A stretch of DNA of 64,000 bases, taken from a virus. Both the position numbers and the translations under genes were made by a program. Below are positions 3,894-62,104 of this stretch, one piece after another (within the stretch, counting starts at the first letter, position 1; each line of letters starts with the position of its first letter). Below the pieces are notes generated by a model. The model was not told the origin of the DNA. It did not search any database and saw nothing but the letters and a program-made list of their open reading frames with translations. The DNA lies in IMG/VR virus record IMGVR_UViG_3300025413_001414, positions 1-64,000 of that record, one strand, 5' to 3'.

Positions 3894-5501
3894 TTAACTT
3901 TGGATTTTGTTTTTATATAAAAATAGTTTGTTACCACTATTATATATTTTTAAATATTTTAATTTTTTAAGTATTTCATTTTCAGTTAGATTTGGATCGT
4001 GACCCATTTTAGTTAAATTTTGCTTTCTCATTGAAAATCTATTTTTCCTATCAAAATTTTTAACATAGAAGTATCCAGGTTTTGTGAATTTTTCAAATTC
4101 AAATCCAAGTTTAATATATAATTTACCAGATGAATAATCATTATTAGAATATGATATAATATTATCAAATTTATAACTAGATATGAAATATTTAAATAGC
4201 TTAGAAGCTCCACCAACTATATTATATCCAATTTTATTACAAAATCTTATTAACTCATAATCACTGTCATTACCATTTTTATTTCCAAGTGATAATCTCT
4301 TTTTTCCAAATGTCATTATAGAAACTAATTCGTCTTTATAGAAGAGTCCAATATTTATTTTAGACACACACCAACCTTGAATGTGATTATTATTGATAAA
4401 ATTTTTAACTAATTTAAAATCCTTTACTTCTTTAATAACACACTTTCTAGCAAAAATTTTATTTGGTGTTTTCCCCAGCTTATTCAATATCATTGATCTA
4501 ACTATTTCATTTTTATTCTTCCAATCATCTTCCCATATCTGAAAAAGATCTATTCCTATTTCAGAACATCTTTTAAATTTATCATAGTGGTAATTCTTAT
4601 CTTTCCAATTTGTAGAATGCCAGTAAACACCATTTAATTCAATTGCTAATTTTTTATCATCTATAAAATAATCTAATTCTAGATTATTTAGAACTTTTCT
4701 ATTTTTGATTTCATATTGAATATTACTTTCATTCAATAAAAATGAAATTTCCTTTTCTGGATAAGATGAGTATATTGGAAAACAAATTGTACATATTACT
4801 TTTTTATTCAAAATTCGTTCCCTTAGAATGTTATTATTTATGACAAAACTATTTCCACAAAAATTACAATCACATATATATCCTTTATTATCATATCCAG
4901 TTATTTTCACTATATAAGAATATTTTTCCTTTATCTGATTTAACGAATCAGATAATCTATTTTTTAATATTTTTTCCCTATCTACTAACTCAAATGGATT
5001 CTCAACTCCATATTTCATCATACAGGTGTTTCTTATCCTTTCTTTTATTTCTTTATTCTTTATAGCAGAATCAACTCCATAAATTTCAATCATTGATTTT
5101 TTAATCTTATCTTTTATTAAATCATTTTTTACTGGGTGCCCTCCATATTTTTTTTTATTAGTTTCTATTATTTTTTTCTTGATCAAGTCCAATTCAAATA
5201 TGTTTTTAACACCATATTTATCTATATTATGATTATTTCTCTTGATGATGGAACACTTTTCAGAGCAACAATATATATCAATCATATCATTTGTATTTAT
5301 TAGATAATTTTCCCATTTTATAGACTTTGTATTGCCGCATATGTCACATCTAACATTTATATAAAAATTTCCCTTTTTAAATGGATAATCAATAGGTGAT
5401 ACTTTTATAAAATCTCCTAATTTTATATCAACTTTTTTAGTTCTCAAATATGATATATTTCTAGTAGAAGCTTTTATACATATCTCATTATCAATTATCA
5501 T
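3894..5501 (-). CDS. Hef-like endonuclease: Zn ribbon + 4 KYG repeats + PD-(D/E)XK + Mom/GNAT-like domain
   Basis: CDIC; KYGV repeats; ELDYF..LAIELNGVYWH, IWEDDW; NHIQG, YELIRFC, GGASKL, ISYS. Confidence 0.75.
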   Translation of the reverse strand: MIIDNEICIKASTRNISYLRTKKVDIKLGDFIKVSPIDYPFKKGNFYINVRCDICGNTKSIKWENYLINTNDMIDIYCCSEKCSIIKRNNHNIDKYGVKNIFELDLIKKKIIETNKKKYGGHPVKNDLIKDKIKKSMIEIYGVDSAIKNKEIKERIRNTCMMKYGVENPFELVDREKILKNRLSDSLNQIKEKYSYIVKITGYDNKGYICDCNFCGNSFVINNNILRERILNKKVICTICFPIYSSYPEKEISFLLNESNIQYEIKNRKVLNNLELDYFIDDKKLAIELNGVYWHSTNWKDKNYHYDKFKRCSEIGIDLFQIWEDDWKNKNEIVRSMILNKLGKTPNKIFARKCVIKEVKDFKLVKNFINNNHIQGWCVSKINIGLFYKDELVSIMTFGKKRLSLGNKNGNDSDYELIRFCNKIGYNIVGGASKLFKYFISSYKFDNIISYSNNDYSSGKLYIKLGFEFEKFTKPGYFYVKNFDRKNRFSMRKQNLTKMGHDPNLTENEILKKLKYLKIYNSGNKLFLYKNKIQS

Positions 5502-7225
5502 TATACGTGATTTTTATTTTTTACATCAATCGTTCCAGTTTTAATAATATTAACAGATTTTAATCCATTGCTTTCAATATCATCACTGTAGTATATATTA
5601 TTTCTATCATACCATCCACCTCTTATAATAGGTAAATCACTTGGGTCAAATATAATATCACCTAAGACTGAATCTATGCCAACAATTTTATTAGGATTAT
5701 ATGTAGTTGATGGTCTTGATATATTTAAAGCATCTTTGGCCGCAAATTGATTTCTTCTATTTTGATCATCCAACATCGATTGTCTGTGATGATCCTCGTT
5801 ATTCTTGGATATAAATGATACATCAACAGACGCTATATCTGTAATGTTAGAAAGATTTGCAACTATTTCACTCTTTGGAATTCTATCTATCTTATTTAAA
5901 TTTAAAAAATATTGTGAGATTGTATCTACAATTTGAGCATTTACATTGTCATCAATTGCATCTGACCAAGTCATTATAAATACATTAATACAATAATAAG
6001 ATAAAGCTGGTGATGAAATTTGATATTTAGTAGTTAAAAGTAAATTACCGCCTGTTTTTAAATACAAATCTATCTTAGAGATTTCATATTTATCTAAACT
6101 AAAAGCTCTTATATCAATAGTAAAATAGTTAGCATTTTGGCTTTTAAATAGAACTATATTTGGTGTAGCAACTATGTAAATTACTCCATTTTGTTGATAA
6201 GCATTAACATGAGAAAATACTCCTAATCTTTTTATAGCATATGCATATTGTTGTGGTAGTCCTAATACAAAATTATTACTAGCAATCGGTAATAATGATT
6301 TAGTGAAGCTAATAGGCTCTTTGTCAGCACCAAAGTTAATATCAGTAAAAATAGAGACATCAAATAAATTAGCTATATCAATAGTATTTCCGAATCCATC
6401 AATTGTAGGATCAACAAATATCCAGTCATTTGGTGTTCTTCTAAATATAGATCCAATAGAGCCATCACTAACTAAGTAATTAACTTGAACCTGTGATGCA
6501 ATTGATGGTATGTAACCAAATCCTGAGTTTCCAAAAATAATATCAATTCCACCATTAAATCCTGTTCTAACAACACATGCCGATTCACCAGGACTCATAT
6601 CATACATTGATTTGTAAATAGTCATTAACTGACCATCAACTAGAACTTCATAATTGAAATTTTCTATATCTTGTTGATTTGATCTAATGGTTGCTTGGAA
6701 AGTTTGATTTTCTGTTCCGTCTCCAGTAAAAGATTGTGATGACCAACCACCTTGTATTATAGGTAAGTATATTTGTGTCGAGTTGGTTACTTTATATGTT
6801 TGTTTATCTGTTCCTAAATTTAGGGAGTATTTTAATCCGTTTGTTTTGTTTTTCAGTAATTGTCTATTCGTAAATGTCAATCTTCCACCTGGGATTGTAG
6901 ATTCTATATCTACACTTGTTTTGATGGAAATTAATAATGTGCCAGTAGCACTTATATTTCTAGTCGGAATGTGACCGGTATAAATGGCTGCGTTTTTAAT
7001 AATTCTTTCATTCACAGAAGCAGTATTTGTGATATCAAATTGTTGTATAGAGTTTTTGAGATATAACATCGATAATTGAAAAAGATTTTCAACTACAGAT
7101 AAAATTTGACCATAAGGAGAACTTGTAGAATATAAAAGATTGGCTTTTGAATATTGATCTTTTAAATATTTTTCTATTTCAGCTTTAATATTAGCAAATG
7201 ATATCTCTGTAAAGGTACTTGCCAT
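5501..7225 (-). CDS. Baseplate wedge subunit (T4 gp6-like)
   Basis: N-terminal SFANIKAEIEKYLK; I.FGNSGFG.IP and V.YLVSDG..G motifs of gp6/baseplate J-like proteins. Confidence 0.7.
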   Translation of the reverse strand: MASTFTEISFANIKAEIEKYLKDQYSKANLLYSTSSPYGQILSVVENLFQLSMLYLKNSIQQFDITNTASVNERIIKNAAIYTGHIPTRNISATGTLLISIKTSVDIESTIPGGRLTFTNRQLLKNKTNGLKYSLNLGTDKQTYKVTNSTQIYLPIIQGGWSSQSFTGDGTENQTFQATIRSNQQDIENFNYEVLVDGQLMTIYKSMYDMSPGESACVVRTGFNGGIDIIFGNSGFGYIPSIASQVQVNYLVSDGSIGSIFRRTPNDWIFVDPTIDGFGNTIDIANLFDVSIFTDINFGADKEPISFTKSLLPIASNNFVLGLPQQYAYAIKRLGVFSHVNAYQQNGVIYIVATPNIVLFKSQNANYFTIDIRAFSLDKYEISKIDLYLKTGGNLLLTTKYQISSPALSYYCINVFIMTWSDAIDDNVNAQIVDTISQYFLNLNKIDRIPKSEIVANLSNITDIASVDVSFISKNNEDHHRQSMLDDQNRRNQFAAKDALNISRPSTTYNPNKIVGIDSVLGDIIFDPSDLPIIRGGWYDRNNIYYSDDIESNGLKSVNIIKTGTIDVKNKNHV

Positions 7226-7334
7226 TTAAAAATAATTTTTTCTTAATGTATATATATTAAAAATTGTAACTCGTATTAAAAAAAAACATCTTTCCACATT
7301 TATATATAGTTATGTAAAAAATTAATCCGAACAG

Positions 7335-8054
7335 ATGGGAAACGATGTGATCACATTATTTGAAAAATATGGTATAAAGGGTGGTTTTGCTGTATTTATT
7401 ATTGTAGCTATCTATATTTTCACAAAAGGTGGTTTATTAAATAAATTAGTTATTTCAATCTCAGAAAAATTTGTTGAGTACTTTATGAAAAAGAAAGTTA
7501 AAGTCATGATTTCTGATGTGACTTTATCTGATATTACTAACCACGATATATTCAATTATATTGATTTCTGGATGTATTCTAGAATACCAACTTTTCAATT
7601 TTCAACTGAATATAGAACCGTTGTTTTTAGAAAATATTTAAGTATTTATCTAAAGAAGCACAAAGAAGATTTACAACAATTTATTAACTCAAAAGCTTTT
7701 ATTAGTATGGATGAGTCAGAATTGTGGAAGAATTTTCTTTCATTAGTCAATAACATTGTATATGATTATGAAAGAGAAATGCTAGATGCGGGCATACCTC
7801 AAATCATTATCTCTAAAATGAAGGCTAAAAATAATGATACGATATCTTTAACTATTGATTTAATTGAAGGTATTTGTAATAGTAAGTTTTATAGTTCAGC
7901 TGATAACTTATTAAAAATTTACTCTATTTTAAATATAATGCTTTCTATTTTAGAAAATACTATACAAAATAGTGAGGCGGTTTGTAACTCGATCAATGGA
8001 CAATTGAAGGGTATGACTTTTACGGACGGTTTGAAAAATTATAAAGAACCTTAA
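7335..8054 (+). CDS. Membrane-anchored hypothetical protein
   Basis: One N-terminal hydrophobic helix (GGFAVFIIVAIYIF) then a soluble domain. Confidence 0.65.
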   Translation: MGNDVITLFEKYGIKGGFAVFIIVAIYIFTKGGLLNKLVISISEKFVEYFMKKKVKVMISDVTLSDITNHDIFNYIDFWMYSRIPTFQFSTEYRTVVFRKYLSIYLKKHKEDLQQFINSKAFISMDESELWKNFLSLVNNIVYDYEREMLDAGIPQIIISKMKAKNNDTISLTIDLIEGICNSKFYSSADNLLKIYSILNIMLSILENTIQNSEAVCNSINGQLKGMTFTDGLKNYKEP

Positions 8055-8578
8055 TTCATTAAATCATAAACCATATCTATTTCAAAATCAGGATCAGTAA
8101 TTCTTAAATCATAATCAGAGAAATTTTTAAAATCTTCTCTATCAGATTTTAATCTTCTGTCAATTGAATCATTATTATCATTTCTTCTGGTGATTCTTTC
8201 TCTTCTTATTTTTTCATCAATATCCAAATAAACAACGAAACACCTTTTTCTATCTTCTACACCTAAAGTGGAAATCTCATGAGGAGTCATAATAAATAAG
8301 TGATTTTTTTCAAAATTATTATTACCAACTGCATAAAACCAGTCGAATTCATTAATTAGAAAGTGTTGATAAGTTTTGATTTGATTTGATTCGAGTAATT
8401 TTTTAAACTTATTATTATCAGTGAATTTATATTCAACTCCTTGCTTTTCTAATTTTCTTTTTGGTCTGGTTGTTATTTTCGGTTCATACTTCAAACCCTT
8501 CTTAATTAGGGCTCTTAATAAATGGTCTTTTCCTGAACCACTCGGCCCACAAATTACCAATTTTTCACTTTTATCCAT
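8051..8578 (-). CDS. gmk: Guanylate kinase
   Basis: GPSGSGKD P-loop, TTRPKR..E..GVEYKF; ATG at 8578 preferred over the track start. Confidence 0.85.
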   Translation of the reverse strand: MDKSEKLVICGPSGSGKDHLLRALIKKGLKYEPKITTRPKRKLEKQGVEYKFTDNNKFKKLLESNQIKTYQHFLINEFDWFYAVGNNNFEKNHLFIMTPHEISTLGVEDRKRCFVVYLDIDEKIRRERITRRNDNNDSIDRRLKSDREDFKNFSDYDLRITDPDFEIDMVYDLMN

Positions 8579-8709
8579 ACTATTATAGTATGACTCCACC
8601 AAAAAAGTTTGAAATTTTAAATAAAATATAAACAATCCACTATTTCAGAATGACATTACAATAGTTTTATATATCTAGTCTCAACAATAAAAAAAAATAA
8701 TCAAAAATC

Positions 8710-10713: not shown

Positions 10714-10731
10714 TTATTGTTTTTTAATATT

Positions 10732-10762
10732 AAAGTCTATAAGAAATTATAGACTTTTTTTA
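10732..10762 (+). terminator. Intrinsic terminator
   Basis: AAAGTCTATAA-GAAA-TTATAGACTTTTTTT. Confidence 0.75.
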
Positions 10763-10763
10763 T

Positions 10764-31194: not shown

Positions 31195-33210
31195 TTAATT
31201 ATATATATCTTTAATTATTTTATCTAATATTTCAAACCTATCATATTGGTGAACAATTGCGTAAACTTCACCACTTTGATTCACTATTTGATTATCTTTA
31301 TTAATCGAGATAAAATTAGTTTGACCTAAAGTAGATATTTCCTTAGTATTATTATAGTGTTCTTTTACTTTATCTGGAAATGCATTTGAATAGTAAATAG
31401 GAATTGCTTGTTCGACTACAAAGGAGTTATCACCAGTATCAAGTGAGGATTTTTCAATAATTAATTGAATAAAGAATTCCAAAAAGGGCATTATTTCGTT
31501 TCTATTACCAGCTATAATACCACCATTTAATATAGGTCTATCTTTAACTTTTTCAAAATATTCATCTCCATAAACTCTTTTGATCCAAGTTGTATTAATC
31601 CAACAATTACCAATTGTGTTATCTTCCATACCAAAATGAACAACTCTTTCTTTAAAATAGTTGAAAGGATTATCTTGAAATATAACATCTCTAGAATCTA
31701 CTAATAATATATTTTCATATTGTAGATAATTATCTAATACTATTTTATAATAGAAAGGTCTTAGATTATTAATTGTATTTAGCTTCAGTTGAATATATTC
31801 TGGCTTAATCAATTGATTAATTATATCTATATTGACTGAGTAATCAATTTGTATAGGTTCATATGATAATACCATCAAAGTTCCTTTAAAATTAACTCTT
31901 TCTAAACTTTTAATAAACGGTCTAATCATTTCTGATGTATAGTTTATAGCAACAGTTAGTATTAAATCTTTTTTCATTTCTTTTTTATATACCCAACATC
32001 CTTGAAAATCTTGAATATCTTTTACATCAAAAGATTCATGAACTGCCTTTGTTACACCTTCTAACCCAATAGGCCCAATTCCACCCGGTGGGACGTAAGG
32101 TCCATAATCATGACCAGCAATAATACCACCAACTTTAACTTTAGGTAACCAATGCTCAATATCTTCTTTAACACTCTCATAGGAGTGGTCTCCATCTATG
32201 AAAACAAAATCTAAGGACTCATCTTCATATAATTTAGATGCTGATACAGAAGTTGATCGTATTGGATTGATAATATACTTAACTGGTTTAATATTCTTTA
32301 GAAACTCAATATATAACCCATCTTTGTTGCTTAATAAAGGTTCAAACCACGGACTATAAGGGTCTCTATGCACATCGGCCCCATCCCAAGTATCAACACA
32401 GTCGAACTGTATCTTTTTTCCTGAGTTATGTATCTCTACAGCCATATAAGCTGAGCTTCTACCTTTCCACGACCCAACCTCTACAAAGTGGCTTCCTTCT
32501 GGAAATTGTTTGACCATACTTGAGTATAGATCAGGGTAGGTAAACCAGTCCTCTCCTAAATTTTGATAAAAGTGTTCCATCTTTTTATTTATGAATAGTA
32601 TATTTTTTTGGTGTAGATTAGTATATGTATTTACTAATTCATCTAATGTCTCTGCCTCTTTAAATCCCAATTCGTCCATGAACTTACAAACCTCATCATA
32701 CAATGGAGAACCCTGATTATAAGGAGTCATAGATACTTCTAATAATATCCCTTTAGCTCTACTACATATATTTCTACCACCTGTTATTATATCTAATTCA
32801 GAACCTTGTGTATCTAACTTTATTAAATCAAATTCCTCGTTTAAGATATCATCTAGTTTGACTCCTTTCTTTTTGATAATATTAATCTTATCATCAGAAT
32901 ACCAATCTGTCAACTCTCTATATATAGAATTACCAGTTGAGATTGGATTATTAGTTGTATAAAAATCATATTCTGAATTATCTTTAGCTAATAAACCTAT
33001 ATAGTAAGAATTGGTAAGTTTTTTGAGGTGTATTTCACATTCTTCTGAAGCTTCTACCGAGAATATGTAGGCATCAGGAAACTGTTCTTTAGCGAAGTAA
33101 TGAAATTGTCCAATATTTGCACCTATATCTAATATTCTATTTGGGTAGAAATACTTTTTGATAGGGGTTAAGTCAGTGCTATCTTCTTTTTTATATTGAC
33201 TAAACTCCAT
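31195..33210 (-). CDS. Fusion: FkbM methyltransferase + class I methyltransferase + GT-A-like domain
   Basis: LDIGANIG/KLDTQGSE; VEVGSWKGRS/FIDGDHSYE/GHDY; LVDSRDVIFQ/NGG/HQYDR. Confidence 0.85.
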   Translation of the reverse strand: MEFSQYKKEDSTDLTPIKKYFYPNRILDIGANIGQFHYFAKEQFPDAYIFSVEASEECEIHLKKLTNSYYIGLLAKDNSEYDFYTTNNPISTGNSIYRELTDWYSDDKINIIKKKGVKLDDILNEEFDLIKLDTQGSELDIITGGRNICSRAKGILLEVSMTPYNQGSPLYDEVCKFMDELGFKEAETLDELVNTYTNLHQKNILFINKKMEHFYQNLGEDWFTYPDLYSSMVKQFPEGSHFVEVGSWKGRSSAYMAVEIHNSGKKIQFDCVDTWDGADVHRDPYSPWFEPLLSNKDGLYIEFLKNIKPVKYIINPIRSTSVSASKLYEDESLDFVFIDGDHSYESVKEDIEHWLPKVKVGGIIAGHDYGPYVPPGGIGPIGLEGVTKAVHESFDVKDIQDFQGCWVYKKEMKKDLILTVAINYTSEMIRPFIKSLERVNFKGTLMVLSYEPIQIDYSVNIDIINQLIKPEYIQLKLNTINNLRPFYYKIVLDNYLQYENILLVDSRDVIFQDNPFNYFKERVVHFGMEDNTIGNCWINTTWIKRVYGDEYFEKVKDRPILNGGIIAGNRNEIMPFLEFFIQLIIEKSSLDTGDNSFVVEQAIPIYYSNAFPDKVKEHYNNTKEISTLGQTNFISINKDNQIVNQSGEVYAIVHQYDRFEILDKIIKDIYN

Positions 33211-33309: not shown

Positions 33310-34443
33310 TTACTTGGTTGGTTTATTGATTCGTTTGATATTAACGAGAACATCTTTGAACGAAATCATAAACTTCTTAATCTTCGGATCTGACACGTCA
33401 GGAACGTTATCGAGAACGTGTAACAGATAAGCCGTCAATTCATCATCACCGACCCTCTTCAAGAACTTGGTAACATTGTCGATTTGTTTATCAGACAATT
33501 TCTTGATATCGTACTCCTTCAATGATTGGATCAATTCAGAGTTTTTATCACGATTATACTTATCCAATTCTTTTACTACAGTGTCGTAACGGTCAATAAT
33601 ATCTTGGATAGTGATATTAATCATTTCTTGACAATATTGTAAGAAACGTTGAGCGCCGTTACCAATGTAAGAGTGTGCGATGTTCTGTAGAACTGGCAAG
33701 AATGCCTTTGGAGACGAATCTTTACCGAAATTGTTACAAATAAAGTCACTCAAGAATGTCCAAGAACGAGGCGTTGCGTAAGCCTTAGTACTTTCAGTTG
33801 GGGCTTGATACAACTTTTCAGGGTAGTTCTTGATGTAGGAAACTACAATCGGGTGAACTTTATCCTTAGCGAAGTTATCAATCCATTCATCAGCACCTAA
33901 AGTATGTGAATAGTGAATCAAACGGTTATTAAGAGCGTTGTCGAATTCTTCAACATCAGTACCATCTTCATCACCAAGGTTACCACTGGACATCATCAAT
34001 ACGGTATCATTGAATTTGAACTCAGTACCGATTTGACGTTCAAGAAGAATTTGAAGAGCCGCGTTACGAACTGGTAGAGAAGCACGATTCAATTCTTCAA
34101 AGTGAATAATCGTAGGTTGTTTGTTAGCCTCAATAGCCCAACGAGGAACTACGAAGTCAAGACATTTAACACCCGAAACATCACTGACACTAGGATAAAG
34201 ACCTACGTCGGTTTCGTCAACCATTGAAAGTCGAATATCCATATATCTAAATCCTATTTTTTCAGCAATTGAACGTGAAATTGCTGATTTTGCAATACCA
34301 GGTTTAGAAGTAATGTAAAGAACACCGGATTTAGGCCACATTACCATGAAGTAAAGACGTTCACGTTCAGTAAGAGCGTTCATCTTGGCCATAAATTCTT
34401 GTGGTAGACCTGCTTTTGTATCTTTGTTTTCTGCCATAATCAT
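33310..34443 (-). CDS. MoxR-like AAA+ ATPase
   Basis: SKPGIAKS (Walker A variant), IHFEELNRA, GN, ALNNR, TPRSW. Confidence 0.85.
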   Translation of the reverse strand: MIMAENKDTKAGLPQEFMAKMNALTERERLYFMVMWPKSGVLYITSKPGIAKSAISRSIAEKIGFRYMDIRLSMVDETDVGLYPSVSDVSGVKCLDFVVPRWAIEANKQPTIIHFEELNRASLPVRNAALQILLERQIGTEFKFNDTVLMMSSGNLGDEDGTDVEEFDNALNNRLIHYSHTLGADEWIDNFAKDKVHPIVVSYIKNYPEKLYQAPTESTKAYATPRSWTFLSDFICNNFGKDSSPKAFLPVLQNIAHSYIGNGAQRFLQYCQEMINITIQDIIDRYDTVVKELDKYNRDKNSELIQSLKEYDIKKLSDKQIDNVTKFLKRVGDDELTAYLLHVLDNVPDVSDPKIKKFMISFKDVLVNIKRINKPTK

Positions 34444-34712: not shown

Positions 34713-36440
34713 ATGCAAAACTATACATTTTTATATAATGATACAAAGTTAGACAAAAACAAACTAAAAGAGGATTGGATTAAGAAAAATGTCCCATCTT
34801 TATACAAAGATGTTATATCATTCTCAAACATGATAAACTTTGAGTATTCCAAATTTTCACAATTATTATATCATTATAAAATAAATAAGACTGAATTGCC
34901 AATATGTGACTATTGCAAAAAAGAAAATAAAAGATTTATTGGATTTGATTATGGATATAAACTAGGATGTAGTAGACATTGTGCAATTTTACTAACAAGA
35001 CCAAAGTCAAATGAAACTAGGAGATTGAACACATTAGAAAAATATGGAGTTGAACACACCACCCAACTAAATTCAGTTAAAGAAAAAATAAAAAAAACCA
35101 ACATTAAAAAGTATGGAGTAGAACATGCTTCACAGAATGAAAATATTAAAAATTCAATTAAAAAAACAAACAATATACGATATGGTACTGATTTGCCTCT
35201 TCAAAATTTACAAATTAAGAATAAAATGATTGATAACTTTATAGAAAAGTATGGTGTCAGTAACCCAATTTTACTAGATTCAGTCAAAAATAAAATTAAA
35301 AAAAATAATTTGAAAAAATATGGATGTGAATGGCACATATCTTCTGATATTATCAAACAAAAAATAAAAAATTCACAATATCTTCATAATTATAAAAATA
35401 TTGTTTCTAATTATGGTAAAATCGATGGATTAAATATAATATCATATGAAAATAATATAGTAAAATTTTATTGTGAAAAGTGTAACAATGAGTTTGAATC
35501 AAATTATGTACATCTTTATAATAGACATATCAGAGATAAATCTAATATTTGTACTATTTGCAATCCACTAAATAACAAAACATCTAATGGACAAAAAGAA
35601 ATTATAAATTTTTTAAAGGAACTAAGAATAAATATTACAGTAAATGATAGAAAAATAATAAATCCATACGAAATAGACATTTATCTAAAAGATTATAATT
35701 TAGGTATTGAGTTTAACGGCATATATTGGCACTCTGAAATAAACAAGGATAATGGCTACCATTATGATAAGTATAATAGATGCACACAAAAAGGTATTGG
35801 ACTAATTCAAATTTGGGAAGATGATTGGACATATAAAAAGGATATAATAAAGTCAGTGATAAAAAGTAGGATAAATAAGAATTCATCAATTGGTGCTAGA
35901 TTATGTATCATAAAAGTAGTTTCAAATGAAGATTCTAAAATTTTTCTAAATGAAAATCATATTCAGGGATGGTGTATTTCAAAATATAGATATGGATTAT
36001 ATTTTGAAAATAATCTAGTTAGTATATTAACAATTTCAAATAGTAGAAAAAATATTACTAAAAATGCAAAAATCGGAGAATATGAAATAGTTAGATTTTG
36101 TAATAAAATTGGAACAAATATCATTGGATCTTTATCAAAACTTTGGAAGTTTTTTGTAAATGAAATAAATCCGGTAAGAGTTATTTCATATTGTGATAAT
36201 GATCTATTTAGTGGTAAATCCTATTATAAAATAGGTATGAAATTAGATAGTATGTCATTTAATTATTGGTGGTGTGATGGTGATAAAAGACAAAATAGAT
36301 GGAATTTCAGAAAAGATAAATTAATAAGTGAAGGATATGATAGAGAAAAAACTGAATCAGAAATAATGATAGAAAGAGGATGGTATAAATGTTATGGATC
36401 TGGTAATAAAAAATTTATTTGGAATAAAGATAATATTTAA
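34713..36440 (+). CDS. Hef-like endonuclease: 5 KYG repeats + PD-(D/E)XK + Mom/GNAT-like
   Basis: EIDIY..LGIEFNGIYWH, IWEDDW, NHIQG, YEIVRFC. Confidence 0.75.
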   Translation: MQNYTFLYNDTKLDKNKLKEDWIKKNVPSLYKDVISFSNMINFEYSKFSQLLYHYKINKTELPICDYCKKENKRFIGFDYGYKLGCSRHCAILLTRPKSNETRRLNTLEKYGVEHTTQLNSVKEKIKKTNIKKYGVEHASQNENIKNSIKKTNNIRYGTDLPLQNLQIKNKMIDNFIEKYGVSNPILLDSVKNKIKKNNLKKYGCEWHISSDIIKQKIKNSQYLHNYKNIVSNYGKIDGLNIISYENNIVKFYCEKCNNEFESNYVHLYNRHIRDKSNICTICNPLNNKTSNGQKEIINFLKELRINITVNDRKIINPYEIDIYLKDYNLGIEFNGIYWHSEINKDNGYHYDKYNRCTQKGIGLIQIWEDDWTYKKDIIKSVIKSRINKNSSIGARLCIIKVVSNEDSKIFLNENHIQGWCISKYRYGLYFENNLVSILTISNSRKNITKNAKIGEYEIVRFCNKIGTNIIGSLSKLWKFFVNEINPVRVISYCDNDLFSGKSYYKIGMKLDSMSFNYWWCDGDKRQNRWNFRKDKLISEGYDREKTESEIMIERGWYKCYGSGNKKFIWNKDNI

Positions 36441-45498: not shown

Positions 45499-45529
45499 AA
45501 AAAAATAGGAACCGAAGTTCCTATTTTTT
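45499..45529 (-). terminator. Intrinsic terminator after the VWA gene
   Basis: AAAAAATAGGAAC-CGAA-GTTCCTATTTTT (UUCG loop on the - strand). Confidence 0.8.
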
Positions 45530-47048
45530 ACTTATCATCATTTTCCAAAACAATCTGTTTTACTTTACCATTTGAACGAGCGATTGGAACTTTAGTACCA
45601 ACAGATATCATCAAGACATTACCTTTAACTTTTGACAAATCAAGTGAGTCAGTATAACCATCTGTTAACAGAATTGTTGCGTATTGGTTGAAGTGTTCTA
45701 CTACATAGTCAAATCCAGTTTGCATTATTGTACCTCCAAGTCCGCGAATTGGAACTTTATCCAATCCTTTCTTATTCTTGATATTTTTAACCCATTTGAT
45801 TTCAGTATCACTTTCAATCAAATTGATTTCAATATCGTTACGATATACATAAGAAAGAACTCTTTCAAAAGTGCCAGATCCACCCATACTTCCTGATGTA
45901 TCAAGAATAACGTTAATCTTTGTTTTAATCTTACGGTTACCTTTCAAACCAGGCACTTGACGACGATTAGGTTTAACAATAGTCTTTTGTTTTTTAGTAC
46001 CAAAGATTTCATTAGCGATTGAACGCTTGATATGTTTCAAATAATCTTTCCTTTTCTTACGAAGCTTATTCAAAGTCTGTTCGATGTTTCCTACTTGAAG
46101 GCCACGAGCCTGTAATCTTTCCATCACATCTTTTACCATAGACTCTCTCATTTCCTCCGGAATTTCATCACCCATGTGGACGTCCATGTATTGACCTTGA
46201 GTATTCTCCATGTTGTCAAAGATTTGATCCAATGACCAAGTATCAATAGTTCCTTTGTCATTTTTCGGATCTTTACCATAAGGGCCATAAGAAGATTTAC
46301 CTTGAGAATCTTTACCATCTTGACCACCACTTCCACCACAATCTGGACAAGGTTCGCCTTTACCATGTTGATGACCTTGACCATTTTGATTCTGACCATT
46401 CTGATCTTGTTGACCATCTTGACCACTCTGACCTTGACCATCTTGTGGCTGAGCTTCACCTTGATCTTGTTGAGGTTGACCTTGTTGATTCTTTTGACCC
46501 TCTTGTTTTTGACCAGTACCGTTACAAGTCTTACACTGGCCGTTTTTCTTTTGTTTCTTTTTGTGCTCGTCTTGTTTATCACGAAGCCACTCATAAACTT
46601 CTTCAAAGATTAATTTACCAGTATATTCTTTAGGAATAAACAAAGCCATGTTCTTACCATTTTCATCCTTAGGAATTTCAATGAAAGAATTTGGAATATC
46701 TTCCCAGATGATATGATTGATAATCATATCTTGAGCGATATTAGAAAGTTGATGGTCGTATTGACCAGTAATAGTACGTTTAGGGTGATTCCACAAAAGG
46801 TGGAAATCTTCGTGTAGAGTAATGAAGTTAACCTCTTTTTGAGACATCTTCTCCAAGAACTCTGAATTGTAATAGAATTGCATACCCTTTGCAGTCATAT
46901 TTACACCACAAGTAGGTACTGCTTTATTATTTTCGTGGAAGTTAATGAAAAGATTGAACGTTCCATAATATGGTAGGTTCACTTTTGTATCAATCAACAT
47001 AATCTGTATAGATTCCATTAATTTCTCGTGAATGTTCTTTAATTGCAT
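45528..47048 (-). CDS. DUF2201-type metallopeptidase + VWA protein (MoxR partner)
   Basis: LHEDFH (HExxH), NIAQD..IN; DTSGS, GGT, LTDGY MIDAS motifs; promoter at 47072-79. Confidence 0.87.
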   Translation of the reverse strand: MQLKNIHEKLMESIQIMLIDTKVNLPYYGTFNLFINFHENNKAVPTCGVNMTAKGMQFYYNSEFLEKMSQKEVNFITLHEDFHLLWNHPKRTITGQYDHQLSNIAQDMIINHIIWEDIPNSFIEIPKDENGKNMALFIPKEYTGKLIFEEVYEWLRDKQDEHKKKQKKNGQCKTCNGTGQKQEGQKNQQGQPQQDQGEAQPQDGQGQSGQDGQQDQNGQNQNGQGHQHGKGEPCPDCGGSGGQDGKDSQGKSSYGPYGKDPKNDKGTIDTWSLDQIFDNMENTQGQYMDVHMGDEIPEEMRESMVKDVMERLQARGLQVGNIEQTLNKLRKKRKDYLKHIKRSIANEIFGTKKQKTIVKPNRRQVPGLKGNRKIKTKINVILDTSGSMGGSGTFERVLSYVYRNDIEINLIESDTEIKWVKNIKNKKGLDKVPIRGLGGTIMQTGFDYVVEHFNQYATILLTDGYTDSLDLSKVKGNVLMISVGTKVPIARSNGKVKQIVLENDDK

Positions 47049-47180: not shown

Positions 47181-49016
47181 ATGGTATTAGATAAAAAAAT
47201 AAAAGTTAAAATAAACAAAAAAAATATTTCACATTATATTCAATTTTATCCATCAATAAAATTAAAGGATATTATTGAGGTTGATGTTGAGAATCATTTA
47301 ATGAAAGGAAGTAATCAAAAAATAAACGTCCAATGTGATATCTGTGGAATTGCTAGGTTTATAAATTTCCAATCATATAATATTAATTTAAATTCTTGCC
47401 CGGAATATCCAATTTATACTTGTGATAAATGTTCTCATATTAAAATAAAAGAGTATAATAAGAAAAAATATGGCGTAGAATATTATTCAAAAACTAAGGA
47501 ATATTCAGAAAAGTTTAAGAGTACAATGATTGAAAAATATGGAGTAGAATATGCTTTACAAAGTGATGAATTAAAAAAAAGGCAAATAAATAATAATTTA
47601 GAAAAATATGGTAAAAAAAATGTTTTTCAAGTTGATAAAATTAAAGATAAAATTAAAGAGTATAATAAGGAGAAATATGGTGTAGAACATTATTCAAAAA
47701 CTAAGGAATATTCAGAAAAGTTTAAGAACATAATGATTGAAAAACATGGGGTTGAAAGTCCACTTCAAGGTGGGAGTGTCTCAAGAGAAAAGGCTAAAAA
47801 TACGATGTTAAATAAATATGGAGTTGATGTATATGCAAAAAGTAGTGAATTTTTAGAAAAGGTTAAAATAACCAATATGAAAAAATATGGAGTTGAGTGG
47901 ATAATGAAATCAGATATTTTTAAAGACAAAAGCAAAAAATCTATTAAAAATAGATATGGTGTTGATAATATAGCTAAATACGAGAAGCATAGAAAGGATT
48001 TTAAAATATCTAACGATCCAAATTATATAAAATATGTAAACGAAGGCATATCGCTATTAAAATGTAACAAAGGACATGAATTTGAGATACCATCACATAT
48101 CTATTATAATAGAAGTAAATATAAAATAAATTTATGTACAATGTGTAATCCAGTTGGCGAAAGTTCATCTATAAAGGAAAACGAACTATTTGATTTTATA
48201 TGCAATAACTATAGAGGAGAAATAATAAATTCATATAGGGATAAAAAGGAAATTGATATTTATTTACCAGAATTAAAATTAGGATTTGAATTTAATGGAT
48301 TATTCTGGCATTCAGAATTATATAAGGAAAAAAACTATCACTTAGATAAAACAATTTTATTTAAGGACAAAGGTATAAGCTTATTTCATGTATGGGAGGA
48401 TGATTGGATGTATAAACAGGATATAGTTAAATCGATGATTTTAAACAAATTAGGTGAAACTCCTAGTAGAATATTTGCTAGAAAATGTGAAATTAAAGAA
48501 GTTACTGATAGTAAATTAGTTAGATATTTCCTAAATAAAAATCATATTCAAGGATTTGTTGGATCAAAAATAAAATTAGGGTTATATTATAATGACGAAT
48601 TAGTTAGCTTAATGACATTCGGTAATTTACGAAGATCTTTAGGCCAAAAAAGCAGTGAAGGATCATATGAATTATTAAGATTCTGCAACAAATTAAATAC
48701 CAATGTTATTGGTGGTGCTTCTAAATTACTCAAATATTTTTTAAAATTTAATAATGTCAGGGAAATTATTAGTTATAGTGATTTAAGTAGATCTAATGGT
48801 AATATGTATCAACAATTAGGATTTAAATTACAACATAATTCTAATCCTAATTATTATTACATTATTGGTGGTATTAGAAAACATAGATTTGGATTTAGAA
48901 AAGATGAATTAGTTAAGGATGGATTTGATCCGAATAAAACTGAAATTCAAATAATGAATGAAAGAGGTTATTATAGGATTTTTGATTGTGGAATGCAAAA
49001 ATGGGTATTAAATTAG
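47181..49016 (+). CDS. Hef-like endonuclease: 8 KYG repeats + PD-(D/E)XK + Mom/GNAT-like
   Basis: EIDIYLPELKLGFEFNGLFWH, VWEDDW, NHIQG, YELLRFC, GGASKL. Confidence 0.78.
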   Translation: MVLDKKIKVKINKKNISHYIQFYPSIKLKDIIEVDVENHLMKGSNQKINVQCDICGIARFINFQSYNINLNSCPEYPIYTCDKCSHIKIKEYNKKKYGVEYYSKTKEYSEKFKSTMIEKYGVEYALQSDELKKRQINNNLEKYGKKNVFQVDKIKDKIKEYNKEKYGVEHYSKTKEYSEKFKNIMIEKHGVESPLQGGSVSREKAKNTMLNKYGVDVYAKSSEFLEKVKITNMKKYGVEWIMKSDIFKDKSKKSIKNRYGVDNIAKYEKHRKDFKISNDPNYIKYVNEGISLLKCNKGHEFEIPSHIYYNRSKYKINLCTMCNPVGESSSIKENELFDFICNNYRGEIINSYRDKKEIDIYLPELKLGFEFNGLFWHSELYKEKNYHLDKTILFKDKGISLFHVWEDDWMYKQDIVKSMILNKLGETPSRIFARKCEIKEVTDSKLVRYFLNKNHIQGFVGSKIKLGLYYNDELVSLMTFGNLRRSLGQKSSEGSYELLRFCNKLNTNVIGGASKLLKYFLKFNNVREIISYSDLSRSNGNMYQQLGFKLQHNSNPNYYYIIGGIRKHRFGFRKDELVKDGFDPNKTEIQIMNERGYYRIFDCGMQKWVLN

Positions 49017-54471: not shown

Positions 54472-54488
54472 ATTTTATATTTAATATT

Positions 54489-56995: not shown

Positions 56996-57015
56996 TTAAT
57001 TTTAATATATAGTGT

Positions 57016-57750: not shown

Positions 57751-57908
57751 GATAAAGCACATCAACAATTAAAAGATACAATATTATTTTAATTTGGACT
57801 GTAGGAGGAATGTGCTTAAAGAAATAAACCGGCAGTTTAAATCTTTGAAGGGTTTGATTAAACGCTATTCGTGATCCACTCTAAATAAACCTTGTTGTGA
57901 AACATATC

Positions 57909-58196
57909 TCATATATCAAAATCTTGAAATCCTTGTAATTTATCCCTTAACCTAAGGAGTGTAAACATTTGATTTTTAGATAAGTGTTTAAATTTTTTAT
58001 TGGATTTAATAAACATAAGATCATGAACTCTCTTTTGTGAAAATTTAGCAATATAATCTTTGAATCTACTACTCATATTATTAGTTTGAAATATCTTTCC
58101 ATTAAGTGAGGAAATGATTTCAAGAAACTCTTTCTTTTCAAAAATCCAAGTTCGAATTTTGTTATCAATAAAGTTATTTATTACACTAGCTTTCAT
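57909..58196 (-). CDS. Hypothetical protein
   Basis: 95 aa. Confidence 0.5.
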   Translation of the reverse strand: MKASVINNFIDNKIRTWIFEKKEFLEIISSLNGKIFQTNNMSSRFKDYIAKFSQKRVHDLMFIKSNKKFKHLSKNQMFTLLRLRDKLQGFQDFDI

Positions 58197-58197
58197 T

Positions 58198-58752
58198 TTA
58201 AAATCTTCGTTTATTTGATAAATAAATTAGTCCACCCATTAGAGCACCACCCACATGTCCAAAATGAGACACATTATCATGTGAATTGAATCCACTGATT
58301 ACCTCAATTAAAAATAGACCACCAATAATATACTTAGCTTTAATAGGAGCAGGTAGGAACATAAAATACATTGACTGATTTGGATACATCAAAGTAAATA
58401 TAACCATAATACCCCAGATGGAACCAGAAGCCCCAACTAAAGGATTACTACTCCCTACCATATAAAGATGAAGGGCTGCTCCAGCAATGCCACAAAGTAA
58501 ATAGTAAATCCACATTTTTCGACCACCATAAATTTCCTCAACAGAAGGTCCAAAAGATAGTAATACTAACATATTGAAAATAATATGTAAAAAACCACCA
58601 TGTATGAATTGGTAAGTGATAAACTGAAATCCTAAATCGGGATTATTCAAAGAAAATAATCCATACATTAGATTTGGTAGCAATAGTGTCAATAAAAAGG
58701 CTACTACATTAATGTAGAAAATACTTTTAACGGTAGGTGTAGATTGGAACAT
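58198..58752 (-). CDS. Rhomboid intramembrane serine protease
   Basis: FIHGGFLHIIFNM, VGASG, SHFGHVGG. Confidence 0.92.
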   Translation of the reverse strand: MFQSTPTVKSIFYINVVAFLLTLLLPNLMYGLFSLNNPDLGFQFITYQFIHGGFLHIIFNMLVLLSFGPSVEEIYGGRKMWIYYLLCGIAGAALHLYMVGSSNPLVGASGSIWGIMVIFTLMYPNQSMYFMFLPAPIKAKYIIGGLFLIEVISGFNSHDNVSHFGHVGGALMGGLIYLSNKRRF

Positions 58753-58844
58753 ATATTTAATTTAATTTAATATTTTATTTAATATTTTATTTAATTTTTT
58801 ATCTCTAATAATTTGTGCAGTTATATCTCTACAAAGATAAGAAA

Positions 58845-60188
58845 TTATTTTAACTTCTTTTTTAATATTGATAAATCTTCTAAATACATATTTTTAGAAT
58901 CAATTTTACTAAGAGCATCCATTTCTTCTTTCTTAATCTTAAAATCTTCTTTTAATTTTTCAAACATTTCTTTTGTTAAAGACCAGATTGGCATTCTCAA
59001 TAAGTAGTCGAAACTATCATCAATTTTATCCAAGCCTAAAGCATCAATATCTTTTATAAGTTTATCCTTTGGAACATTTTTTACCTCTAACTTACCATCT
59101 AAAATAGCTTTAATAAATCTTGCTCTATTAGATAATATTTTTAATTCATGGTTTAACTTATCTAAAAGATATTGTTTTCTTTTATCATAATAAGTTAACC
59201 TGAAATTAACAAAGTAGATAAATATATCTTCAATAGAATCAAATATTTTTAACTTACTATTTTCATCCAAAGTAGAGTAGATTTCAGTTTCATATTCTTC
59301 TAATTTAAGAAGTTTTATTAGCTTTTCCTCATCATACTTAGCTAACTGGTCTCGTGTAAATTTAATGGTATAATCTATATTATCCTTACAATTATCATCA
59401 TAAGAGATAATAACCTTCTTTTCAATTAAGTCATCTAAGATTGATTCGTATTTTTCGAAAGTCATTGATGGTGGTAATTCTGTTATCTTAACTGTTGATG
59501 TATTAACAACTTGAGGCTTTCCTCTGATTATCCATCTTTTTTTATTTTCTTCATCTTGAATATAATCACCATTGAAGAAAGGATTATAGGGTTTAACTTG
59601 AGATATCTTTTTACCTTTTAATAAATTTTCACAAGCTGTAATTGCATCAATTGGATTTCTGTTTAATATATTAGAAGAAAATCCAACTGCGATACCAGAT
59701 GAACCGTTAATTAATACTGTTGGTATAATAGGTAGGAAAAATCTTGGTTCAATTTCTTCTCCTTCTTCTTCTTTATAATCTAGTAATTCAAAGTCTTTAT
59801 AAAGTAGTCTAAAGTTATTATTTAATTTGGTTCCAATATATCTTGGAGCACCTGGTTCAGGTGATCTCAAGGACCCGAATTGACCATCTTCTTCAAGAAG
59901 TGGCATATTGTTTTTGAATTTTTGAGCCATGTTAATAATAGCAGATTCAAGACTTGTGTTACCATGATGATAATAACAATCAGAAGCTACTTTTCCAGCT
60001 AATTGAAATATTTTTAATGGTTTTTCGTTACCCGTTTTCCAAACAGAGTTACTAACGTGAATAATCTTTCTTTGTGAAGGTTTAAGACCATCTATAACAG
60101 ATGGTATGGCTCTATTTTCAATAACATATAATGAAAATTCTTTGTATTCACTTGATAAAAATTCTGTAATTGTTTTTTCTGAATTCAT
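58845..60188 (-). CDS. Type IIA topoisomerase cleavage subunit (T4 gp52/GyrA-like)
   Basis: RAIPSVIDGLKPSQRK, YHHG, GQFGS, APRYI (catalytic Tyr), LINGSSGIAVG; ATG at 60188 preferred. Confidence 0.92.
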   Translation of the reverse strand: MNSEKTITEFLSSEYKEFSLYVIENRAIPSVIDGLKPSQRKIIHVSNSVWKTGNEKPLKIFQLAGKVASDCYYHHGNTSLESAIINMAQKFKNNMPLLEEDGQFGSLRSPEPGAPRYIGTKLNNNFRLLYKDFELLDYKEEEGEEIEPRFFLPIIPTVLINGSSGIAVGFSSNILNRNPIDAITACENLLKGKKISQVKPYNPFFNGDYIQDEENKKRWIIRGKPQVVNTSTVKITELPPSMTFEKYESILDDLIEKKVIISYDDNCKDNIDYTIKFTRDQLAKYDEEKLIKLLKLEEYETEIYSTLDENSKLKIFDSIEDIFIYFVNFRLTYYDKRKQYLLDKLNHELKILSNRARFIKAILDGKLEVKNVPKDKLIKDIDALGLDKIDDSFDYLLRMPIWSLTKEMFEKLKEDFKIKKEEMDALSKIDSKNMYLEDLSILKKKLK

Positions 60189-60274
60189 AATGTATATATA
60201 ATAATATTTATTTTTTGTTTTAAAACAGGTATACAATCAGTGATCGAATGGCTTAAAATTTAATATATATATTT

Positions 60275-62104
60275 ATGATAGTAAATGAAAAAATAAGTAT
60301 AAATGTTAATCCAAATTCTAGAATTTATTACAATTCGATTGGATATAGATGTTCTAATTTTGAGAAAATAGAAATTAGAACAATTGATCTACCAAATGGG
60401 TCTAATATTAAAATATTGGTCAGGTGTGATGTTTGTTTTATTGATCAAACAACTAAGTACAATAAATACTTGAAAAACACAAGGAATAATACTATTCTAT
60501 ACACCTGCAAAAAATGTTCTTTTATAAAAAATAAAAAAACAAAATTAGAAAAATACGGAAATGAAAATTATCAGAATACAGAAAAAATAAAGAAGACAAA
60601 ATTAGAAAAATACGGAGACGAAAACTATACAAATAGAATAAAAGCGAAAAATACATGTATAGAAAAATATGGAGTTGATAATGTATCAAAGTTTGATGAT
60701 ATAAAGTTAACTAAAAAGAAAACAAATATTGATAATTGGGGAGTTGATAATGTTTTTAAATCTGAAGAAATTAAGAGTAAAATATCAGAATCGGTTAGAA
60801 TTAAATATGGATCAGATAATTATGTTACATCAGATGATTGTAAAAATAAGTATAAAATATTCTGTGAGGAATTAGGTGTTAGTCATTATTCACAGTCTAA
60901 AGAATTTAAAGATAAATTTGAGGAAACATGTTTAGTAAGCTGGGGATATAAGACGAATTTATTAAATAATGATATAAAAAATAAGATAAAGGAGACCAAT
61001 CTTATAAAGTATGGATTTGAGTATCATATGAAAAATGCAAAATATTCAGAATTAACATCAAAAAGAATAACAGAGGGCAGAAATGATTATTATAAAGTAT
61101 TAGGATATGAATTGATAAATTATGATTTTAATAAAAAGGAATATCTACTTAAAAGTATTTCATGTGGTCATGAATTTAAAATAAATCATGATTTATTTAG
61201 AAGTAGGATAAAATATAACAACAGTTCTTGTTTGATATGCTATCCAAAAGATGGGTTAACATCAATAAAAGAATTAGAGCTTGGTAACTTTATTAAAGAA
61301 ATATCAAATAATATTATATTAAACTCAAGAGACTTGATTGATGGTAAGGAAATAGATATTTATTTACCAGATCATAAGATAGGAATAGAATTTAATGGAT
61401 TATACTGGCATTCGGATGAATTTAAAGATAAATATTATCATTATAATAAAACAAAATCCTGTTTAGAAAATGGAATATCCTTAATTCATATATGGGAGGA
61501 TGACTGGTTAAATAAAAAAGATATAGTTAAATCAATAATTAAAAACAGATTAGGAATAATTGATAATAGAATATATGCCAGAAAATGTAAAATTGAAATT
61601 GTTACAAACTCAATTAGTAATAAGTTTTTAGACGAAAATCACATTCAAGGTGGGACAAATGCTTCTGTTTGTATTTCATTAAAATATGAAAATGAAATAG
61701 TATCTATAATGACATTTGGTAAAAGAAGAATAAACTCTAAATTGAACCTGGAACTTGTTAGATTTTGTAATAAGAAAAATACATCAGTCATCGGATCGGC
61801 TTCTAAATTATTCAAACACTTTATTGAAAATAACGAATACGATAAAATAACATCATATTCAGATTTGTCCATTTTTAATGGAGATTTATATGAAAGTCTT
61901 GGATTCAAAAATGACGGCGAAACATCTTTAAATTACTATTGGAGCGATTTAAAAAGAAGATATCATAGATTTAATTTTAACAAAAAGAGACTAATAAAAA
62001 TAGGATATGATCCAAATAAGACCGAAGATGAAATTATGAAGAGCATTGGATATATTAAAATATGGTCTTGTGGTCAGGTAAGGTGGATTTTTAATAAGAT
62101 ATAA
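60275..62104 (+). CDS. Hef-like endonuclease: 8 KYG-type repeats + PD-(D/E)XK + Mom/GNAT-like
   Basis: EIDIYLPDHKIGIEFNGLYWH, IWEDDW, NHIQG, ELVRFC, SASKL. Confidence 0.78.
   Translation: MIVNEKISINVNPNSRIYYNSIGYRCSNFEKIEIRTIDLPNGSNIKILVRCDVCFIDQTTKYNKYLKNTRNNTILYTCKKCSFIKNKKTKLEKYGNENYQNTEKIKKTKLEKYGDENYTNRIKAKNTCIEKYGVDNVSKFDDIKLTKKKTNIDNWGVDNVFKSEEIKSKISESVRIKYGSDNYVTSDDCKNKYKIFCEELGVSHYSQSKEFKDKFEETCLVSWGYKTNLLNNDIKNKIKETNLIKYGFEYHMKNAKYSELTSKRITEGRNDYYKVLGYELINYDFNKKEYLLKSISCGHEFKINHDLFRSRIKYNNSSCLICYPKDGLTSIKELELGNFIKEISNNIILNSRDLIDGKEIDIYLPDHKIGIEFNGLYWHSDEFKDKYYHYNKTKSCLENGISLIHIWEDDWLNKKDIVKSIIKNRLGIIDNRIYARKCKIEIVTNSISNKFLDENHIQGGTNASVCISLKYENEIVSIMTFGKRRINSKLNLELVRFCNKKNTSVIGSASKLFKHFIENNEYDKITSYSDLSIFNGDLYESLGFKNDGETSLNYYWSDLKRRYHRFNFNKKRLIKIGYDPNKTEDEIMKSIGYIKIWSCGQVRWIFNKI

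Follow-up and report, generated by a model that had tools for sequence, protein, structure and literature searches.

Four Hef-type homing endonuclease genes with a DUF7487 repeat arm and a Mom-like domain at intergenic sites of a huge phage

The 64,000-nucleotide window analysed here, positions 1 to 64,000 of the virus record IMGVR_UViG_3300025413_001414, contains four genes whose products appear to join tandem repeats, a nuclease and a domain resembling the DNA-modifying enzyme Mom of phage Mu. Why would one phage carry four such proteins, and what do the repeats and the Mom-like domain contribute to them? An initial annotation of the sequence proposed a reprogrammable DNA-recognition array on a homing nuclease that may also modify or protect its own DNA. 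According to our analysis, the four have diverged from one another and all belong to a very common type of selfish gene in phages, that of the Hef-type homing endonuclease; they are of a known kind and represent no new system. Very probably they are free-standing genes of the Vsr-like EDxHD family that invade intergenic sites in this huge, AT-rich phage, and we infer for their products cleavage, DNA binding by the repeat arm and any DNA modification.

All four open reading frames are intact, encode 535-611 residues and share one layout: a Cys4 zinc ribbon, KYG repeats, a second zinc finger, a Vsr-like EDxHD nuclease and a GNAT domain. P0001 (3894..5501, minus strand, 535 residues) encodes an N-terminal zinc ribbon (5259-5501), four KYG units (4986-5258), a linker and zinc finger (4758-4985), the Vsr-like nuclease (4473-4757) and the Mom-like GNAT domain (3897-4472). 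P0002 (34713..36440, plus strand, 575 residues) has a different type of N-terminus, followed by five KYG units (35001-35345), a CxxC...CxxC zinc finger, the nuclease (35586-35876) and the Mom-like GNAT domain (35877-36437). In P0003 (47181..49016, plus strand, 611 residues), a β-rich N-terminal domain with a Cys4 ribbon (47181-47426) precedes eight KYG units (47427-47981), a CHCC zinc finger (47982-48170), the EDxHD nuclease (48171-48455) and the Mom-like GNAT domain (48456-49013). P0004 (60275..62104, plus strand, 609 residues) has eight units, six clear and two degenerate (60512-61036), then the nuclease (61265-61555) and the Mom-like GNAT domain (61556-62101). The initial annotation had called these four paralogues, and they are: with P0003 as query against the six frames of the whole 78.7-kb record, the other copies were found at E 1e-90 to 1e-104 with 41-46% identity, and that search found no copies beyond the four.

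The family is well populated. All four proteins match PHROG 3339/559, ‘homing endonuclease’, over their full length (E 1e-76 to 1e-125), with nearly the entire phrog_3339 profile covered at E 1e-107 to 1e-125; an NCBIfam search of the proteins gave nothing useful. More than 5,764 homologues were found at E<=1e-10, and relatives occur in 431 phage records, many of them annotated as ‘Hef-like homing endonuclease’. Hef of the T-even phage U5 and the Hef-like genes of Campylobacter phages CP30A, CP81 and Los1, of PA5oct, of AR9 and of T4-like phages of Dickeya and Acinetobacter share the same nuclease and C-terminal core, with 31-55% identity over residues about 320-610. Like the four genes here, the Hef-like genes are free-standing between conserved genes and present in several copies per genome. 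Many T4-like Hefs consist of the core only, whereas the four copies add the zinc ribbon, the repeat arm and the second zinc finger. The Mom-like GNAT domain belongs to the ancestral Hef core. Taken as they stand, the four genes are a matter of routine annotation, being selfish nuclease genes and markers of recombination hot spots in huge phages.

The genomic context agrees with the initial annotation. Three stand head-to-head with conserved genes, for which the initial annotation had named an AAA, a VWA and a topoisomerase gene. P0002 diverges from a MoxR-like AAA ATPase gene (33310..34443, minus strand) across a 269-nt spacer, and P0003 from a DUF2201 metallopeptidase/VWA-like gene (45528..47048, minus strand) across a 132-nt spacer. 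P0004 sits between divergent topoisomerase II genes, with the A-subunit (gp52/ParC-like) gene (58845..60236, minus strand) on one flank and the B-subunit (GyrB-like) gene (62512..63999, plus strand) on the other. Only 38 nt separate the P0004 start from the start of the A-subunit gene, which counts against the homing reading as far as the expression signals of P0004 are concerned. The start of P0001 overlaps the stop of an upstream gene (5501-7225). The initial annotation took this neighbour for a baseplate gene; the gene is present, but it has no Pfam or PHROG match, and its proximity to baseplate J/gp6-like clusters, seen by a language-model look-alike search only, makes the baseplate identity a lead only.

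Comparison with related huge phages showed that each of the four sites is occupied in some of them and empty in the rest, the pattern to be expected of mobile genes. L080 and L082 have an empty P0001 site, where L081 carries a Hef of 39% identity. At the P0002 site, the flanking genes abut without an endonuclease gene in five relatives (L083, L085, L087, L097 and L098), and a Hef lies in the same place and orientation in three others (L086, L089 and L090). L065 and L067 are occupied at the P0003 site by the VWA gene; L064, the closest relative, is empty there. The gyrB-like and topoA-like genes that flank P0004 abut directly in L008, L016, L031, L046 and L047, and L036 carries a 59%-identical orthologue in the same place. 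Hefs at the same site are 35-59% identical, as against 66-91% for the flanking genes. The occupied and empty alleles do not define the target sites, because their flanking regions have diverged too far (about 70% identity at the protein level).

Family membership, domain folds, conserved residues and the state of the sites are shown by this analysis, and for the spread of the genes we propose the following. When the carrier and a related phage with an empty site infect the same cell, the protein would bind DNA at or near that site, probably through its basic N-terminal arm (the zinc ribbon, the array of 23-residue helix-turn units and the second zinc finger) and the Mom-like domain. The Vsr-like domain would cut the empty-site DNA, and recombinational repair off the carrier genome would transfer a copy of the gene, flanks included, to the genome that was cut. 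The length of the arm may shift through duplication or conversion of blocks of units, and each unit keeps its own residues immediately past the KYG turn and where the next helix begins.

The nuclease domain is strongly conserved. In an alignment of 118 family members, in which conservation was scored, the conserved nuclease residues are E357, D359, E370, N372, H377, E406 and D407. E357, D359, N372, H377 and D407 are invariant (118/118) and found in all four copies, where they form a composite EDxHD motif. The zinc ligand positions C52/C55/C81/C84 and C295/H299/C319/C322 are conserved as well. The family profile matches I-Bth0305I (PDB 3r3p), the prototype of EDxHD or Vsr-like enzymes, at E 3.3e-4 across the catalytic core (positions 348-416), with matching E/D/N/H/D residues; Pfam MTES_1575 and TIGR00632 Vsr match only below their cut-offs. 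I-Bth0305I differs from the four copies in being encoded by an intron, in binding DNA by means of NUMOD/HTH elements and in lacking a GNAT domain (PMC3239194). Hef-type enzymes were placed in the EDxHD family by Taylor et al. (2011; PMC3239194), and cleavage of nrdB by the U5 hef product is mentioned in a passage of PMC2988022 that cites it. The homing-type nuclease seen in the initial annotation is thus borne out by the PHROG matches, the 3r3p profile match and the occupied and empty sites, with cleavage as the predicted activity. Decay is known for many phage homing endonuclease genes, and the paralogues are old, as their 41-46% identity indicates. The copies could be decayed or domesticated DNA-binding proteins that no longer cut or move. 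We consider this very improbable, since the four reading frames are intact and none of them has lost a nuclease or zinc ligand position that the family conserves.

The repeat arm corresponds to DUF7487 (Pfam PF24308), which scores 56-107 bits in all four copies, above the gathering cut-off of 27. The repeat period is 23 residues, or 69 nt by TRF. A repeat HMM found 4, 5, 8 and 6 clear units in P0001 to P0004, and two degenerate units of P0004 (ELG and SWG) are visible by eye, which reproduces the counts of 4, 5, 8 and 8 given in the initial annotation. In the predicted model of the arm (pLDDT 92), each regular unit consists of a long helix, the KYG turn and a one-turn helix. The arm carries a net charge of +10 to +19. 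The module also occurs on a SegE-like GIY-YIG domain (P0236), on Vsr/DUF559 nucleases without Mom (P0200 and P0185) and in short forms of roughly 282 residues. Its presence on GIY-YIG and Vsr-only nucleases suggests a shuffled module that probably binds DNA, and we predict that the DUF7487 arm is a portable DNA-binding module. Thousands of phage genes contain the arm, and the same holds for the Mom-like domain. Our literature search returned no mention of DUF7487. When the array alone was searched against Pfam at E<=10, DUF7487 was the sole match, and an atlas search gave no other named family; a NUMOD3-like relationship of the KYG units was considered and dropped on these results. In the per-domain Foldseek searches that the initial annotation had proposed, the model of the N-terminal half matched nothing in the PDB at E<=0.001. 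A VIA-wide comparison gave a best Z of 3.4, mostly to single long helices, and no TALE, PUF, HEAT or HhH match. These searches thus gave no analogue that would back DNA binding by the arm, and the missing structural match is no proof of a new fold.

Does the arm read DNA unit by unit? The initial annotation compared it with TAL effectors and described hypervariable residues after a fixed frame. For P0003 it listed VEYY, VEYA, KKNV, VEHY, VESP, VDVY, VEWI and VDNI, and these strings are correct. The residues do differ between units; they are not uniquely hypervariable. After KYG, V is 71% and E/D 80% conserved, and the three positions that follow V-E/D have entropies of 2.5-2.8 bits, compared with 2.7-3.2 at helix positions 1-5, 7 and 9. 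A TALE-like reader, in which each 23-residue unit would recognise one base or a short DNA step through its post-KYG residues and in which arrays would be rewritable, can draw on several features. The two systems share tandem helical units of fixed period and variable number in a DNA-targeting protein. Unit by unit, the residues after KYG-V are 70-78% conserved in close homologues, compared with 38-42% at helix positions 1, 5, 9, 12 and 13. The post-KYG residues form a small number of recurring classes (NPF, YYS, HPS, HYS, YFS and YAL), and paralogues at different sites carry different arrays. Block conversion inside an array also occurs: in P0003 (47441..47772, plus strand), the 125 nt at 47441-47565 have an 86%-identical second copy at 47648-47772, an offset of 207 nt or three units, and units 4-5 resemble units 1-2. 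In the homologues P0006-P0009, units 4-5 are unlike units 1-2 and the unit number is still 8, suggesting conversion within the P0003 array. However, units within one protein share a mean identity of only 30-36% (0.30-0.36) over 23 residues, whereas TAL effectors have near-identical units of 34 residues with a two-residue variable site that has no counterpart in the KYG arrays, and the searches with the model of the N-terminal half gave no structural match to them. The unit number differs even between relatives at the same site, 8 versus 6 and 5 by the VWA gene and 5 versus 3 by the AAA gene. Moreover, core Hefs of T4-like phages in the same family have no arm at all (they match only over residues about 320-610), which means that specificity cannot depend on the arm alone. 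A TALE-like code is therefore improbable, and the analysis lends no support to that part of the initial annotation. The arm of the homing endonucleases may read DNA in a looser, unit-specific way. In a more far-reaching version, to which we give only a slim chance, the DUF7487 array would be an undescribed modular DNA-reading scaffold. Each 23-residue unit would present its own residues, those following the KYG turn and those opening the next helix, to successive target steps, natural block duplication and conversion would retarget Hef, GIY-YIG and Vsr-only nucleases, and the Mom-like domain would add an aminoacyl-tRNA-dependent mark. Should a unit-by-unit reading of DNA prove true, the arm would offer a new and compact scaffold for targeting.

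The C-terminal domain is, in its predicted structure, a Mom-type GNAT, in line with the initial annotation. Its top Foldseek match is Mu Mom (8bv8; E 4.6e-8), and VIA comparison with this structure gave Z 13.2 and an rmsd of 3.3 over 155 aligned residues, the longest alignment among the GNAT matches and of any PDB chain, with 17% identity. The Pfam Mom profile (PF25680) matches the P0003 domain with 25.4 bits (E 1.3e-5), below the gathering threshold of 27.1; it does not match P0001, P0002 or P0004, and some homologues carry a precomputed PF25680 match. A profile-profile comparison of the family with the Mom family gave E 3.3e-4, and hhalign against the single Mu Mom sequence gave a weak match (E 0.084). 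H455, R500, S514, D534 and Y543 correspond to Mom H58, R111, S124, D149 and Y159, residues of known functional weight (PMC13219725), and are conserved in 112-118 of 118 members. Conservation extends to the GGASKL loop and to the motifs NHIQG and RFCN, which suggests a maintained ligand pocket. The family does not conserve equivalents of the essential Mom R151 (S/D536), of Y59 (I456) or of W48, and in P0001 an N stands in place of the D149 equivalent; the domain may thus have lost or altered the chemistry of Mom.

Mu Mom is a stand-alone, Gly-tRNA-dependent modifier of adenine N6 (PMC13219725), and here the domain is fused to a nuclease. The same Mom-family GNAT and restriction-fold nuclease are joined in the Mom-REase fusions of group 2 jumbo phages (Iyer, Anantharaman, Krishnan, Burroughs and Aravind, 2021; PMC7824862), which were read as restriction plus protection. 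By extension, the Mom-like domain would modify adenines of the phage’s own DNA and the nuclease would attack unmodified DNA of the host or of superinfecting phages, a weapon similar to restriction-modification and partly compatible with homing. The five active-site residues, including the R111 and S124 equivalents, that are invariant or nearly so and the apparent pocket agree with such a role; the missing R151 equivalent does not. Genes placed between conserved genes, occupied or empty among relatives and in several diverged copies per genome follow a homing pattern, not that of one defence gene. For general restriction, one would not expect four distinct arms that read sequence, and a fused modifier would be unable to distinguish its own genome from a co-infecting one. 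Combined cutting and protection by one polypeptide thus appears rather unlikely, though less so than a TALE-like code.

Within a homing endonuclease, the Mom-like domain may be an active acyl- or aminoacyl-transferase on DNA; equally plausibly, it mainly binds DNA or recognises bases with its pocket retained, and some other role is distinctly less likely. Its chemistry is now testable, since Gly-tRNA was identified as the Mom donor in 2026, and an active domain would tie homing endonucleases to DNA hypermodification. The placement of Hef in the EDxHD family (2011) and the Mom-nuclease fusion with the idea of cutting and protecting in jumbo phages (2021) are already published; the repeat arm and the empty or occupied sites are not described in PMC7824862, and our literature search found no match for Hef with Mom in phage or for a Mom GNAT with a homing endonuclease. 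New here are the occupied or empty status of all four sites, the Mom residues kept and lost, and the occurrence of the repeat arm on other nuclease types. The alignment with 8bv8 covers residues 37-220 of that chain, in which the helical insertion of Mom (175-209) lies between the last strands; in our model, residues 569-594 form three short helices that lie between strands.

The four genes P0001 (3894-5501, minus strand), P0002 (34713-36440, plus), P0003 (47181-49016, plus) and P0004 (60275-62104, plus) belong to a known and very common gene type, the Hef-type homing endonucleases. They are intact and, as the initial annotation proposed, paralogous, P0003 being 41-46% identical to the other three (E 1e-90 to 1e-104). 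No other copies were found in the 78.7-kb IMG/VR virus record, whose first 64 kb make up the window. The CheckV completeness of the record is 16%, suggesting a genome of ~0.5 Mb, and the window GC content is 25-30%. All four proteins are covered over their whole length by PHROG 3339 ‘homing endonuclease’ (E 1e-107 to 1e-125), and PHROG 559 matches them too. Relatives were located by tblastn in 431 phage records, many of them annotated ‘Hef-like homing endonuclease’, with 10-11 matching places per genome in Campylobacter phages; the best match, 45% identical over the full length, is in a 642-kb uncultured phage. At E<=1e-10, the protein database yields more than 5,764 relatives, of which many come from contigs of 560-770 kb. 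Compared with the solved catalytic domain of I-Bth0305I (3r3p), the family profile scored E 3.3e-4, and ‘bacteriophage Hef type homing endonucleases’ have been assigned to the Vsr-like EDxHD family (Taylor et al., 2011; PMC3239194). PMC2988022 cites work attributing nrdB cleavage to the Hef endonuclease of phage U5.

Related loci were retrieved via each flanking gene and their genes located by tblastn. The topoisomerase site, which holds P0004, is empty in L008, L016, L031, L046 and L047, where 30-240 nt separate the adjoining, divergent gyrB-like and topoA-like genes. L036 carries a P0004 orthologue (59% identical) in the equivalent place and orientation, and L058 a Hef in a different orientation. 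The AAA site, which holds P0002, is occupied by a Hef in L086, L089 and L090. In L083, L085, L087, L097 and L098, the genes on either side lie directly next to each other; L083 is the closest relative (AAA 91% identical). At the VWA site, which holds P0003 next to the VWA gene, L065 and L067 carry a Hef, and the closest relative, L064, has in its place a translation elongation factor-like gene (L064:3818-5788, plus; 656 aa, phrog_6880, E 2.5e-127). The P0001 site is empty in L080 and L082; the Hef in L081 is only 39% identical, with flanks 66-76% identical. Such a pattern is characteristic of homing endonuclease genes that are free-standing and undergo turnover or repeated invasion. Together with the PHROG 3339/559 and 3r3p matches, it supports the earlier assignment of the four proteins as homing nucleases.

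Just 38 nt (60237-60274) lie between the start codons of P0004 and of its divergent neighbor, the topoisomerase A-subunit gene, so that hardly any space is left for two promoters. In seven related phage contigs (L050-L056; e.g. L050:4350-7113), the gene for the topoisomerase II A-subunit is split into two pieces that encode residues 1-94 and 83/93-463 and lie ~1.4 kb apart, which suggests an intron, intein or inserted gene at the break. The VWA-flank protein (45528-47048, minus) has DUF2201 metallopeptidase and VWA-like domains in Pfam and no HNH domain there, and its PHROG 1314 label ‘HNH endonuclease’ therefore looks wrong. Two genes away from P0002, a 671-aa protein (31195-33210, minus) combines an FkbM-type and a Methyltransf_24 methyltransferase domain with a weak glycosyltransferase-like tail.

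Five parts can be defined from an alignment of 118 family members: an N-terminal region, the repeat array, a second zinc finger, the nuclease core and a ~185-residue C-terminal domain. A Cys4 ribbon in the N-terminal region (C52, C55, C81, C84) is invariant, as are E357, D359, E370, N372, H377, H387, E406 and D407 in the nuclease core and H455, Q457, G458, R500, C502, G540 and Y543 in the C-terminal domain, which also contains a GGASKL loop. P0003 and P0004 have a second zinc finger of the CHCC type, P0001 and P0002 one of the C4 type. The P0002 N-terminal region (34713-35000, plus) is of a different, helical type (KFSQLLYHY...), common to the AAA-site Hefs of L086 and L089 and absent from P0001, P0003 and P0004; insertion site and type of N-terminal region seem to be linked.

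AlphaFold2 modeled P0003 with high confidence (pLDDT 91.2 overall, 92.0 across the N-terminal half). Among the PDB matches of the model, Foldseek ranks Mu Mom first (8bv8, E 4.6e-8), ahead of many GNAT acetyltransferases. In VIA-align, GNATs scored Z 13-14.6 over ~130 residues, and Mom gave the longest alignment, 155 residues at Z 13.2 (model 433-611, chain 37-220). The Pfam Mom model scored 25.4 bits on P0003, slightly below its cut-off of 27.1, and did not match P0001, P0002 or P0004; P0001 is matched by PHROG 1384 ‘Mom-like’ (E 2e-6). Profile-profile comparison with the Mom family gave E 3.3e-4 over 141 columns. The by-eye recognition of a Mom-type GNAT domain in the initial annotation was correct. 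In that profile-profile alignment, Mom H58, R111, S124, D149 and Y159 correspond to H455 (118/118 members), R500 (118/118), S514 (116/118), D534 (112/118; N in P0001) and Y543 (118/118). Y59, the essential R151 and W48 of Mom are replaced by I, S/D and K. The roles of the Mom residues, and Gly-tRNA as the Mom donor, are described in PMC13219725. Iyer et al. (2021; PMC7824862) already present a Mom-nuclease fusion and the idea of self-protection by DNA modification.

The repeat counts of 4, 5, 8 and 8 in P0001 to P0004 and the 23-aa period noted initially were reproduced, with DUF7487 matches in Pfam (E 1e-15 to 1e-30). In the P0003 model, each unit is a ~15-residue helix, a K-Y-G-V turn and a one-turn helix. 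Arrays have net charges of +10 to +19. The further proposal that the units form a programmable, TALE-like array is not supported. Within a protein, units share just 30-36% identity. Across 1,277 units, the entropy of the three residues after KYG-V-E (2.5-2.8 bits) is not above that of helix positions 1-5, 7 and 9, and N, Y or H occupies position 19 in 82% of them. Unit number varies among Hefs of the same site, 8 versus 6 and 5 at the VWA site and 5 versus 3 at the AAA site, and core Hefs of T4-like phages are wholly without the repeat arm. Foldseek against the PDB and a VIA-wide search with the N-terminal-half model found no structural analogue of the arm. Some observations favor a unit-specific role, and a looser form of the proposal may hold. 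Among the five closest P0003 homologues, residues after the turn are conserved between corresponding units (0.70-0.78 identity), and helix positions 1, 5, 9, 12 and 13 drift (0.38-0.42). At least 60 of the 124 related proteins have Y[YF]S, [YH]xx, NPF and HPS, in this order, in their first four units, and P0004 and its L036 orthologue both have 8 units with mostly similar residues.

The DUF7487 module is shared with a SegE-like GIY-YIG enzyme (P0236) and with Vsr/DUF559 nucleases that lack the Mom domain (P0200, P0185), and short forms of ~282 aa exist as well. The array therefore behaves as a portable, putative DNA-binding module, by analogy to NUMOD modules; a Pfam search with the array alone found no sequence link to NUMOD. 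Within the P0003 array, a 125-nt internal copy (86% identity) lies three units apart. Since units 4-5 differ in the close homologues P0006-P0009 while the unit number is equal, this copy looks like conversion within the array. Between P0003 and P0006-P0009, the N-terminal half, comprising zinc ribbon and repeats, is more conserved (58-77% identity) than the Mom-like domain (50-54%), the opposite of the pattern among P0001-P0004, which hints at mosaic recombination between the two parts.
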